Source of the DNA: an uncultured Chlamydiae bacterium
GTDB lineage: Bacteria; Chlamydiota; Chlamydiia; Chlamydiales; JAJFMA01
DNA: 64,000 nt
Direction of reading: 5' to 3'
Assembly: GCA_963713615.1 (NCBI GenBank)
Contig: CAVQMM010000001.1
Span: forward strand, 3,072,001 to 3,136,000
The notes beneath the pieces were generated by a model. That model saw only the letters and a list, made by a program, of their open reading frames with translations, made no database searches and had not been told where the DNA came from. Shown in pieces: positions 57,753 through 60,587 of this stretch; the first letter of the stretch is position 1; each line of letters starts with the position of its first letter. The position numbers and the translations under genes were made by a program.

Positions 57753-57832
57753 CCACCAGGTGTGCCGGCGATTGCTGGCTGAGAGCTGAACCTTTGAACC
57801 TGATCTGGATAACACCAGCGTAGGGAGAGTGG
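57753..57832 (+). promoter_or_regulatory. TPP (THI-box) riboswitch aptamer
   Basis: GGTGTGCC...GCTGAGA...ACCTTTGAACCTGATCTGGATAACACCAGCGTAGGGA consensus, closed by CCAC/GTGG, upstream of thiE-like genes. Confidence 0.93.
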
Positions 57833-57910
57833 AGTGTCTATGCAATTCTTTGTCACATTCAGTTTCTTTTTTATTCCTTGGTGGATGCTAACCAAACCAA
57901 GGATCATATC

Positions 57911-58606
57911 ATGCTCACCGCTGCATCGCGGTTACCGGCCACGAAGATGGCCGTTAACCTATCACCTTGCTTAATAGCCAATGGATCTGTTGTTTCTGAT
58001 GAAAAGACATACATTAAGAGGGTCTGTCGTATCGTTGAGGCGGGTTTTAGCTGTATCCAGGTTCACTGGCCCCCTAGGGAAATACAAAAATGCGTTTCTT
58101 CGGCCATGCATTTAAAGAATCTTCTAAGTGATTCGGCTCTCGTGATTGTGAATAACCATGTCGATGCAGCTTTAGCGTCTGGTGCCGATGGAGTTCACCT
58201 GGCAGGGCATGATTTTCCTGTGGTGCATGCACGTCGTCTTTTAGGTGATAAGGCTATCATCGGATACACGCTAACATCCTGGCGGGATCTTCACGATAAA
58301 GAAACTCTCAGCCTCGTGAATTATGTAGGGATTAAGATATGGTCATCCCCTCGTTCACAGCCTGAAGGGGCTCCTCCTTGGGGCATCGAAGGTATCAAAG
58401 AGGCCCTGGAACTTCTGGAAGTTCCTGTGATTGTTTTAGGGGGCATAACCAAACAAACGCAGCCCGATATTCTACCCATTCTTCGGCTGCGTTCTGGCGA
58501 CGGCTTTGCTGTTGTTGGAGATTCTTGGCGTGCCGAAGACCCTTTAACCTTAGCCAAGGAGATGGTCGAGCTATATCATCATCATCGGGAGGGATCAATT
58601 TTATGA
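57911..58606 (+). CDS. Divergent ThiE/TenI-family protein
   Basis: IVNNHVDAA...ADGVHL, AIIGYT, PVIVLGGI; several catalytic ThiE motifs altered; track start 57878. Confidence 0.75.
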   Translation: MLTAASRLPATKMAVNLSPCLIANGSVVSDEKTYIKRVCRIVEAGFSCIQVHWPPREIQKCVSSAMHLKNLLSDSALVIVNNHVDAALASGADGVHLAGHDFPVVHARRLLGDKAIIGYTLTSWRDLHDKETLSLVNYVGIKIWSSPRSQPEGAPPWGIEGIKEALELLEVPVIVLGGITKQTQPDILPILRLRSGDGFAVVGDSWRAEDPLTLAKEMVELYHHHREGSIL

Positions 58607-59955
58607 AAATCAAACCCCTACTCATCATTTCTTTGTTTTGCCTCGTGGTGATGATTAGTGCCGACTTTGCCATCTTGCGGAGCTTGCGCAATACCTTAGC
58701 GGTTACCGATCTTGGTGGAAATGCTCTGCATATCCCCTATTTTGAGCTGTTCGGTACGTTGCCGGGATCGGTGCTAATGACATGGTTCCTGGGACGTCTA
58801 TTGGGTCGCTTTTCGCTAAATAGCACTTTTCAGATAACCCTGGGTATATTTCTGACTTTCTTCTTGCTCTTTGCCTTTTTTGTTTATCCTCGCGTTAGTT
58901 GTTGGAAACAGGCTTTTCCTGGTATCGCCATCGGCTTCTCCATGGGTTTTTATATCATGGCTGAGCTGTGGAAGGTGGCCCTTTTAACGCTCCTGTTCTG
59001 GGGCTTAGTCAATGAGCATATGCCTTTGACGCATGCGAAAAAACTCTATGCACCCTTAATGCTGGCTGGAAGCCTGGGGACGTTGATCGCAGGCCCGATT
59101 ATCACCGCGTTCTCGTTTTGTGATGATTGGGCATCGACTCTCAGCCAGCTCCTGCTGGTCGTTACCTTTATAGGTTGTCTGGCAGGAATTCTCTACTATG
59201 GCATTTCGCGCATGCTATCGAGAGAAACGCCTATTCGGCAATATGCACCGACTGTGGTGTCCTTACAGGCAAGTTTTGGAAGCTTCATGAATTCTTCTTA
59301 TCTAACATTGCTGGGAGGTATTGTCCTGGCAGACTATGTAGCCTATAGCCTGGGTGAGGTGATCTTCTTGGATGCGCTAAAACAGATTTATCCGCAACCA
59401 CAGGATTATTGCCGCTGGCTTGGACATTTGTCCCTTTTGAGTGGCATTCTCACAGGCATAGGAGCGTTGTGGGTGGCGCCAAAAATTTTAGAAAAATGTC
59501 GATGGGAAGTGGCAGCCTTGGCGACGCCCGTCTGCGTGTTGATTACCGAGGGAGCGTTCTTTTTGATGCTTCGACTGCCCGAAGGAAGCCAAATTCTCTT
59601 GGGATGGAGCTATCAACAATGGCTTGAGGTAATTGTGTGGTTAGGTTCGCTTCAATATTGCCTCTGCAGGGCAGCTAAGTACACCCTGTTTGATTCAAGC
59701 CGTGAACTAGCCTTCTTGATGCTTCCTAGTGAGGCGCGTCTGCCCGGCAAGCTGGTGGTGGATGGGGTATGTGCTAGAATCGGACGTGGAGCCGCATCTT
59801 TTTTAAGTCTGCTTTTTGCACACTTATGCGGAGGGGTTTTGGCAAGTGCCTGGCTGGCTGGCCTGGTCGCTTTTTTGGTCTCTGCTGGTTGGGTGACAGC
59901 CACCAGACGATTGGGAGGCCTTATCGATAGACCAGGCGAGCGTCAGGAGGCATAA
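58603..59955 (+). CDS. Npt1/Npt2 (TLC, NTT) family nucleotide carrier
   Basis: ILRSLRNTL, FYIMAELW...LLFWGLVNE....HAKKLY, KYTLFDSSRELAF, GKLVVDGVCARIGRG match NTT signatures; ATG at 58603 overlaps the upstream TGA. Confidence 0.87.
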   Translation: MKIKPLLIISLFCLVVMISADFAILRSLRNTLAVTDLGGNALHIPYFELFGTLPGSVLMTWFLGRLLGRFSLNSTFQITLGIFLTFFLLFAFFVYPRVSCWKQAFPGIAIGFSMGFYIMAELWKVALLTLLFWGLVNEHMPLTHAKKLYAPLMLAGSLGTLIAGPIITAFSFCDDWASTLSQLLLVVTFIGCLAGILYYGISRMLSRETPIRQYAPTVVSLQASFGSFMNSSYLTLLGGIVLADYVAYSLGEVIFLDALKQIYPQPQDYCRWLGHLSLLSGILTGIGALWVAPKILEKCRWEVAALATPVCVLITEGAFFLMLRLPEGSQILLGWSYQQWLEVIVWLGSLQYCLCRAAKYTLFDSSRELAFLMLPSEARLPGKLVVDGVCARIGRGAASFLSLLFAHLCGGVLASAWLAGLVAFLVSAGWVTATRRLGGLIDRPGERQEA

Positions 59956-59957
59956 CC

Positions 59958-60587
59958 ATGTTAAAAGTAAGCTATCCATGTTTATATTTTGTAACGCCTG
60001 AAATAGGTTCAGATAGTTCTGCATGGGTCCATCTGATAAAGGAGGCCGTTTTTGGTGGTGTGAAGATGGTACAGGTGCGTGACAAGCGCAGCTCTTCAAA
60101 AAAACTGATCGAAGTCGTTGGGCTGCTTCAACCCTTTCTAAAACGCCATTCTGTGCCTCTGATTATCAATGATCGAGTGGATATCGCCTTGATCTTAAAG
60201 GCAGATGGAGTCCATATAGGCCAAAATGATTTTAGTGTGAACGATGCGCGTGCCCTTATTGGCCCAAAAGGCATCGTAGGGCTATCAGTGGAGACTTTGG
60301 ACCAGGCGGCACAGGCAGCTGGCGCTGACTACCTCGCTGCCAGCCCGATCTTTGCCACCCCAACCAAAAGGGATACTGAAAAGCCCTGGGGGTTAGCAGG
60401 CTTGAAGCTATTACGAGCACTTTCAGGTTTGCCTATCATCGCCATCGGGGGTATTAAGCATCACAATGTTCGAGAAGTTCTACAGGCTGGTGCTAATGGT
60501 ATTGCTGTGGTGTCAGCGATAGCAGCAGCCACATGTCCCAGGATGGCTGCTGCACGTCTGTGCCATGAATTAGGATTTAGGAGTTAA
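59958..60587 (+). CDS. thiE: Thiamine-phosphate synthase
   Basis: VQVRDK, LIINDRVDIA, ADGVHIGQND, VGLS, FATPTK, IAIGGI, GIAVVSAI. Confidence 0.93.
   Translation: MLKVSYPCLYFVTPEIGSDSSAWVHLIKEAVFGGVKMVQVRDKRSSSKKLIEVVGLLQPFLKRHSVPLIINDRVDIALILKADGVHIGQNDFSVNDARALIGPKGIVGLSVETLDQAAQAAGADYLAASPIFATPTKRDTEKPWGLAGLKLLRALSGLPIIAIGGIKHHNVREVLQAGANGIAVVSAIAAATCPRMAAARLCHELGFRS

Follow-up and report, generated by a model that had tools for sequence, protein, structure and literature searches.

What does a carrier of the nucleotide transporter (NTT) family move when its gene lies behind a thiamine pyrophosphate (TPP) riboswitch? The question is raised by a three-gene operon in a 64,000-nt stretch (the window) of the genome of an uncultured Chlamydiae bacterium (G000; GCA_963713615.1, contig CAVQMM010000001.1), in which the gene for the carrier, P0001, stands between two genes related to thiE. 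The original prediction for this locus was that the carrier imports TPP, thiamine monophosphate (TMP) or phosphorylated thiamine precursors from the host. The reading that we now favour, with slightly less than even confidence, is broader: P0001 would be one of a subfamily of chlamydial NTTs that carry organic phosphates other than nucleotides, with thiazole phosphate or TMP/TPP as the likely cargo here and isopentenyl or dimethylallyl diphosphate (IPP/DMAPP) as the likely cargo in relatives that have no isoprenoid pathway. It builds on the operon, riboswitch, pathway inventory, gene neighbourhoods, co-occurrence and shared residues that were observed, and the cargo and the mechanism are deduced from these.

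The operon and its thiamine context

The layout originally described for the locus held up. An Rfam covariance-model scan recovered a full-length TPP aptamer upstream of the genes (67.9 bits, where the gathering score is 54.3; E = 3.3e-11), which was the sole Rfam match within the window, and the tight coupling of the three genes was confirmed with its coordinates (Table 1). No thiD, thiM, thiC or thiG lies within the operon, as had been stated; thiD, together with a THI5-type gene, follows a second TPP riboswitch at another genomic site. The predicted fold of the leader (57745–57930) had a z of −2.44, and no terminator-like site was listed between the aptamer and the first gene. Because a predicted leader hairpin covers the first ribosome-binding site, control by the riboswitch is probably translational.

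The source genome, which is 99.1% complete, has three TPP riboswitches, preceding THI5-thiD, the carrier operon and a TenA-like gene, and the NTT carrier is the only transporter behind them. It encodes THI5, ThiD, ThiE, TPK and the TenA-like protein; ThiM, ThiL and ThiC were not found in it, and ThiG and Thi4 gave short partial matches only. The bacterium makes the pyrimidine half of thiamine, hydroxymethylpyrimidine pyrophosphate (HMP-PP), and has ThiE, yet no source of thiazole phosphate was found. An intact ThiE with neither ThiG nor ThiM also occurs in six other genomes (G015, G151–G154 and G156). Import of hydroxymethylpyrimidine or HMP-PP was rejected for this genome; HMP-PP, one of the cargoes first proposed, is unlikely because THI5 and ThiD are encoded. 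A riboswitch-thiD-thiO-thiS-thiG-thiE-thiF operon is present in the congener G090, the 94% assembly of which yielded no riboswitch copy of the carrier. In many relatives (L151, L154, L158, L160, L163, L164, L167, L170, L171 and L175–L177), a TPP riboswitch lies directly before a carrier of the major facilitator superfamily (MFS), and four riboswitch-linked MFS carriers of relatives had no match in G000. In two genomes with this arrangement (G094 and G111), neither TPK nor ThiL was found, which makes the MFS carrier a candidate TPP importer. The TenA-like gene behind the third riboswitch of G000 (L018, 7619–8476; contig C1, ~557600–558500, minus strand) encodes approximately 55 extra N-terminal residues.

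The two thiE-type genes were described as paralogs, and both products do have the ThiE fold, but they are not equivalent, as only the second passes the TIGR00693 cut-off of 145.1 bits. P0003 (190.9 bits; Pfam TMP-TENI, 201 bits) aligns to 2TPS/1G4T at an E-value of 4e-33 with its QxRxK, ND, GxS and TxTK motifs intact, and by these motifs it is a thiamine-phosphate synthase. P0002 scored 87.7 bits (TMP-TENI, 92 bits) and reads QxHxP, NN and SPRSQ where intact copies have QxRxK, ND and TxTK, motifs that presumably have pyrophosphate/Mg and thiazole-phosphate roles. Its structure model keeps the ThiE fold (TM score, 0.72–0.76) with a disordered N-terminus, and the protein is probably no thiamine-phosphate synthase. 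A TenI identity was rejected for P0002 (44.2 bits on NF005819 against a cut-off of 251), which is nearer to ThiE in both sequence and fold. A homolog search returned only five ThiE proteins (30–36%), and the ESM Atlas matches bore family-level names only. Proteins of the P0002 type are always paired with a carrier or riboswitch: their genes precede this NTT carrier or, in G159, G160, G186 and G191, an MFS carrier. Furthermore, they have 5–40 extra N-terminal residues (57911–57990 in the window; also L019, L104, L110, L161 and L172–L174) that are Arg/Ser-rich and free of acidic residues. Arg with no Asp or Glu in residues 2–16 was observed in 13 of 16 degenerate ThiE proteins, none of 13 intact ones and 19.5% of 994 open reading frames (ORFs) of the genome, with this charge criterion and the start sites chosen after the sequences had been seen. 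The tail resembles a mitochondrial presequence or a secretion signal.

P0001 is, as proposed, an NTT-type carrier (Pfam TLC, PF03219, 243 bits), and it scores below the curated cut-off of TIGR00769, the model for canonical ATP/ADP and nucleoside triphosphate (NTP) carriers (202.8 against 387.2 bits). Its structure model (pLDDT, 93.6) matches the solved ATP/ADP translocases 9J3L, 9J3M and 9J3N, which have the NTT1-like 12-helix fold, with TM scores of 0.85–0.90. Comparison with two solved ATP/ADP carriers confirmed that LRSLRN and IGRG occupy the positions of LRDTKD and GKSGG; the RDxKD motif, the Asn of transmembrane helix 5 and the GKSGG motif of canonical carriers are all replaced. Relative to the NTT1 of the same genome, the changes include K48>R, D49>N, K65>E, N192>S and Y294>D, and identity to canonical carriers is approximately 25%. 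Riboswitch-linked copies share with copies from pathway-less genomes (defined below) a pocket signature of R29, E48, K124, S157, D244, Y245 and Y248; the corresponding residues of 32 canonical carriers are mostly K, K, S/G, N, Y, N and I. From the alignment to NTT1, we infer that these residues line the substrate cavity. The Asn that is invariant in the 32 canonical carriers, and Ser in the subfamily, presumably selects adenine. E121, E252 and K383 are kept in both kinds of copy.

Table 1. Features of the riboswitch-carrier operon, in window coordinates
Feature	Position	Strand	Details
TPP riboswitch aptamer (RF00059)	57748–57844	+	cmscan 67.9 bits, full model 1–105
Predicted expression platform	57875–57903	+	hairpin in predicted fold; 3' arm holds the first gene's ribosome-binding site AAGGA (57899–57903)
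Degenerate ThiE-fold protein P0002	57911–58606	+	231 amino acids
NTT/TLC-family carrier P0001	58603–59955	+	450 amino acids; ATGA overlap with the upstream thiE-like gene
thiE, P0003	59958–60587	+	209 amino acids; 2-nt gap after the carrier

Distribution of the subfamily and isoprenoid synthesis

A scan of genome contigs with the single protein retrieved nothing, whereas an 88-row alignment retrieved 102 ortholog loci, 64 from genomes and 38 from metagenomes. The chlamydial NTT subfamily forms a well-supported branch (support, 99–100); the first tree left out ORFs under 380 amino acids (12 of the 102 loci). Orthologs without thiamine context had been named beforehand as an outcome that would speak against the original prediction, and 91 of the 102 loci showed no such context in BLAST and pattern scans, nor did Rfam detect a TPP aptamer near the carrier in a subset of these 91. 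Thiamine context was found at the other 11 loci. At seven (L019, L028, L042, L054, L064, L066 and L104), a riboswitch precedes the thiE-like and NTT genes, and four more (L051, L080, L110 and L037) have thi genes with no riboswitch found, with thiE-thiL-thiD clusters enclosing the carrier in L051, L080 and L037. Beside this count, G015 has a riboswitch directly before the carrier. The link to a riboswitch or thi genes recurs in other families, and a single clade of thiamine-context copies was rejected (AU test on a quick tree, p = 0.0006); one pathway-less group nests among them.

The carrier adjoins NAD kinase at 41 of the 102 loci and precedes menaquinone (men) genes at 18. The gene order in G000 is xseA-xseB-dxs-ppnK, which is the ancestral order, and at 22 ortholog loci the carrier lies in or next to this dxs slot, flanked by xseA/xseB and ppnK in the same orientation in 7 and inverted in 15. 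At L034, one of the seven, it overlaps its neighbours at both ends. No dxs match was found in any carrier locus, and the replacement of dxs by the carrier may have been a single event.

We called a genome pathway-less when neither IspG nor HMG-CoA reductase was found in it. In an even sample of the order Chlamydiales, with 150 genomes scored (G086 was unscored for the carrier and IspG), the subfamily occurred at E ≤1e-60 in 20 genomes, IspG in 113 and HMG-CoA reductase in 16 of 151. Of the 23 genomes without either marker, 11 had the carrier; of the 127 with one, 9 did (Fisher test, 7e-6, with the significance inflated because the genomes are related). In families f8, f15 and f31 taken separately, the counts were 10:0 for genomes with neither marker and 2:9 for those with one. 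When 42 genomes were searched with a profile, divergent members turned up in G021, G050 and G078, raising the pathway-less count to 14 of 23. The same search covered 23 of the 118 pathway-positive negatives and found no member in them; this second look was uneven. Riboswitch copies are present in five of the nine pathway-positive carrier genomes. IspG was found in 10 of the 64 ortholog genomes, whose completeness is not given, and eight of these 10 belong to the nine with a thiamine-context copy. The other 55 genomes have a non-thiamine copy, and 52 of them have neither marker. In contrast, the carrier shows no link to loss of the thiamine kinases TPK and ThiL, both of which are absent from 13 of 20 carrier-bearing and 82 of 130 carrier-less genomes (Fisher p = 1.0).

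UppS and a polyprenyl synthase were kept in all five pathway-less genomes tested, and no type 2 IPP isomerase scored above the cut-off in five of five pathway-less genomes; type 1 was not searched for. G000 has motifs for Dxr, IspD, IspE, IspF and IspH of the methylerythritol phosphate (MEP) pathway, in addition to Dxs and IspG. The complete genome G182 (L069), titled as a symbiont of Dictyostelium giganteum PALH, gave no match for Dxs, Dxr, IspE, IspF, IspG or IspH; an IspD-like gene remains, and xseA-xseB-ppnK is retained with dxs gone. Its carrier gene lies before menG-menF-menD-menB-menA, and the genome salvages thiazole with a riboswitch-thiE-thiM-thiD operon of its own. Residue 351 of the carrier is polar in 16 of 17 pathway-positive copies, and 53 of 60 pathway-less copies have a hydrophobic residue there (a table that omits G180, a 6.1-Mb bin retained in the 55-genome count), an association that comprises only three changes on the tree, with which a sign test cannot attain significance. 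This residue may mark tuning toward a prenyl tail.

Additional family members and repeats were noted in passing. G000 has a second member of the subfamily, 44% identical and without a riboswitch (L008, 1426–2862; C1 2459888–2461240), which is common also to G041, G070 and G090. Both G000 and G182 retain separate canonical NTTs. Five tandem NTT paralogs lie at C1 2754372–2762575 of G000, and in three of these the pocket positions have diverged strongly; an 85-codon TLC carrier fragment (L012, C1 2643847–2644053) lies approximately 2 kb downstream of the THI5-thiD operon. A very divergent TLC carrier resembling the L010 paralog of G000 lies immediately upstream of the subfamily gene at L049 and L131. 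Three genome records titled Chlamydia trachomatis metagenome-assembled genome (with loci L075, L076 and L082) have a subfamily gene adjoining rplI and no IspG, and they group with environmental bins; these titles look doubtful. Within the window, a long inverted repeat with arms of ~50 bp (~57095–57325), the reading frames of which recur in L017 and near C1:143100, resembles a small dispersed repeat element. The operon is also flanked by short hairpin-like repeats at ~60585–60770, and two ORFs at 50809–54865 have MORN-like Gly-rich repeats and Asn-rich N-termini.

Candidate cargoes

According to the reading that we favour, low TPP would free the ribosome-binding site and allow the coupled genes to be translated. 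The carrier would then import the thiazole half from the host, as thiazole phosphate or as TMP/TPP, ThiE would join it to the HMP-PP supplied by THI5 and ThiD, and the resulting TMP would be dephosphorylated and converted to TPP by TPK. The same pocket would also accept IPP. IPP and the thiazole tail appear chemically alike, each having an sp2 carbon that bears CH2-CH2-O-phosphate. An IPP side activity would have allowed several lineages to lose the MEP pathway, with the riboswitch lost from the gene afterwards. A thiamine-type cargo for P0001 seems somewhat more probable than not, and a prenyl cargo somewhere in the subfamily slightly more so.

Several observations weigh against this reading. 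It assumes two cargoes where one might suffice, and the polar-to-hydrophobic split at residue 351 means that the pathway-positive and pathway-less groups may differ in cargo. Co-transcription of the three genes is deduced from their spacing only. After the profile search, 9 of the 23 pathway-less genomes had no member, although one has a sister sequence; therefore, either a further route exists or the assemblies are incomplete. Four pathway-positive genomes (G054, G071, G090 and G016) have a riboswitch-less member, as does G000 itself. G155 and G158 have ThiM, and G041/G157 is without an intact ThiE, a misfit with thiazole-phosphate import. Completeness is not given for G151–G214, and the pathway-less copies belong mostly to two or three related clades. 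Finally, the competition of IPP with TPP on DXS that was proposed earlier is contested by the finding, in the accessible part of PMC10203381, that IPP does not compete, which weakens the precedent for such mimicry.

The main rival supposes that every member of the subfamily takes up IPP/DMAPP (or longer prenyl diphosphates) from the host and that, wherever the MEP pathway is retained, the riboswitch induces the carrier at low TPP, bypassing the TPP-dependent DXS, much as B12 riboswitches control B12-independent bypass enzymes. All the isoprenoid-side evidence (the dxs slot, the men context and the co-occurrence with pathway loss) would be accounted for, as would the position of riboswitch copies in MEP-positive genomes such as G000, the common signature residues and the nesting of a pathway-less group among thiamine-context copies. 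We nevertheless regard it as unlikely. In G000 and the six other genomes, it leaves ThiE with no thiazole source that was found and no further carrier linked to a riboswitch, and the carrier lies within thiE-thiL-thiD clusters even where there is no riboswitch. Moreover, the thiE-like gene pairs with the NTT or, in the same position, with an MFS carrier, as if the cargo were identical, and G000 already has a riboswitch-less subfamily member.

A reading in which all members of the subfamily import TPP/TMP or thiazole phosphate, with the isoprenoid-loss link a by-product of lineage history, is closest to what was first proposed, and we consider it improbable. The part that stands is local: the carrier is the sole riboswitch-linked transporter in a genome with no found thiazole source, and the riboswitch and thi context recurs. 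The acidic and aromatic residues gained in the pocket (E48, D244, Y245 and Y248) could suit a cationic thiazolium, the MenD of the adjoining men cluster uses TPP, and the 13 carrier-bearing genomes without TPK and ThiL would need intact TPP. However, absence of these kinases is equally common where there is no carrier, and most orthologs track isoprenoid loss rather than thiamine-enzyme loss. Many carrier-bearing genomes place an MFS carrier or thiE-thiM-thiD behind the riboswitch instead, and both the dxs-slot position and the complementarity with IspG within families are left unexplained.

Least probable is that the subfamily moves a typical NTT cargo or another cofactor (a nucleotide, NAD, or pyridoxal phosphate for THI5), with the operon positions as passengers. 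In favour of this, the characterised NTTs covered in the available part of PMC5381601 all move nucleotides or NAD, 41 of the 102 loci adjoin NAD kinase, the phosphate-handling charges are retained, and a motif scan of G000 found no pyridoxal phosphate synthesis. Against it, NAD kinase already follows dxs in the ancestral operon (NAD import was demoted once G000 showed dxs in that slot), the otherwise invariant Asn is Ser, G000 and G182 keep canonical NTTs besides, and a need for pyridoxal phosphate would not track MEP loss because its synthesis seems absent in an MEP-positive genome too.

Known systems and significance

The subfamily shares PF03219, the fold, E121, E252, K383 and a basic residue at position 29 with the plastid and parasite ATP/ADP translocases (AtNTT1 and Chlamydia pneumoniae NTT1; PDB 9J3J–9J3O) and with chlamydial NTT2/3/5, but it differs from them in its low identity, its score below TIGR00769, its riboswitch control and a patchy distribution tied to isoprenoid loss. 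Riboswitch-controlled transporters of thiamine or its precursors (ThiBPQ, ThiT, PnuT, ThiU and YkoEDC) carry mostly unphosphorylated cargo, with ThiBPQ also moving TMP and TPP. The operon is like these systems in having a transport gene behind a TPP riboswitch beside salvage enzymes; to our knowledge, none of the five is an NTT. P0002 recalls the thiazole tautomerase TenI as a ThiE paralog in a thiamine operon that has lost the synthase motifs, but unlike TenI it is nearer to ThiE, has an N-terminal extension and always occurs with a carrier or riboswitch. The NAD carrier PamNTT4 is an NTT fold that carries a cofactor rather than an NTP, as the subfamily may also do, and it falls outside the canonical clade, according to the available text of PMC5381601, whose supplementary tree may already place the subfamily branch.

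Rickettsia and Reclusachlamydia socialis also have neither the MEP nor the mevalonate pathway and keep prenyltransferases (PMC5615194, PMC6854040 and bioRxiv 10.1101/2024.11.28.625222), and the accessible portions of these accounts name no transporter, whereas here a specific NTT subfamily is the candidate. The L069 genome bears the strain name PALH, the same as in the Reclusachlamydia socialis preprint, and has the carrier in its men cluster; in the part of the preprint available, the PALH symbiont is reported to lack all known isoprenoid pathways. Rickettsia is stated to import, of necessity, IPP, DMAPP or farnesyl diphosphate, and thiamine diphosphate via unidentified carriers, and for plants and protozoan parasites as well as Rickettsia, membrane transport of IPP/DMAPP has been inferred through proteins described as unidentified (PMC6854040 and PMC5615194, in the sections available). 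Rhabdochlamydia helvetica keeps isp genes, according to the accessible text of PMC6490308, and that of PMC6189191 contains nothing on the carrier subfamily. No report linking an NTT to thiamine or isoprenoid uptake was found in the literature searched, the coverage of which largely excluded subscription journals.

Taken together, this is a real, recurring system in which a known carrier family likely serves a new class of cargo. We put forward, slightly more tentatively than the favoured reading itself, the proposal that the subfamily is the first identifiable host IPP/DMAPP carrier, that it replaced dxs in an operon and allowed repeated loss of the isoprenoid pathway in Chlamydiota, and that under a TPP riboswitch it additionally imports thiazole/thiamine phosphates or provides a bypass when DXS is starved of TPP; its degenerate ThiE partner may enter the host via its mitochondrial-presequence-like tail. 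A named family of candidate IPP/DMAPP importers with a member in a cultured pathway-less symbiont (L069) makes the question directly testable in E. coli. If the proposal is true, a prenyl-diphosphate importer would be a useful tool for terpene engineering, the cargo of NTTs would extend beyond nucleotides, and chlamydiae would have gained a thiazole-phosphate importer or a TPP-riboswitch-controlled bypass. It would also explain how these bacteria drop an otherwise essential pathway.

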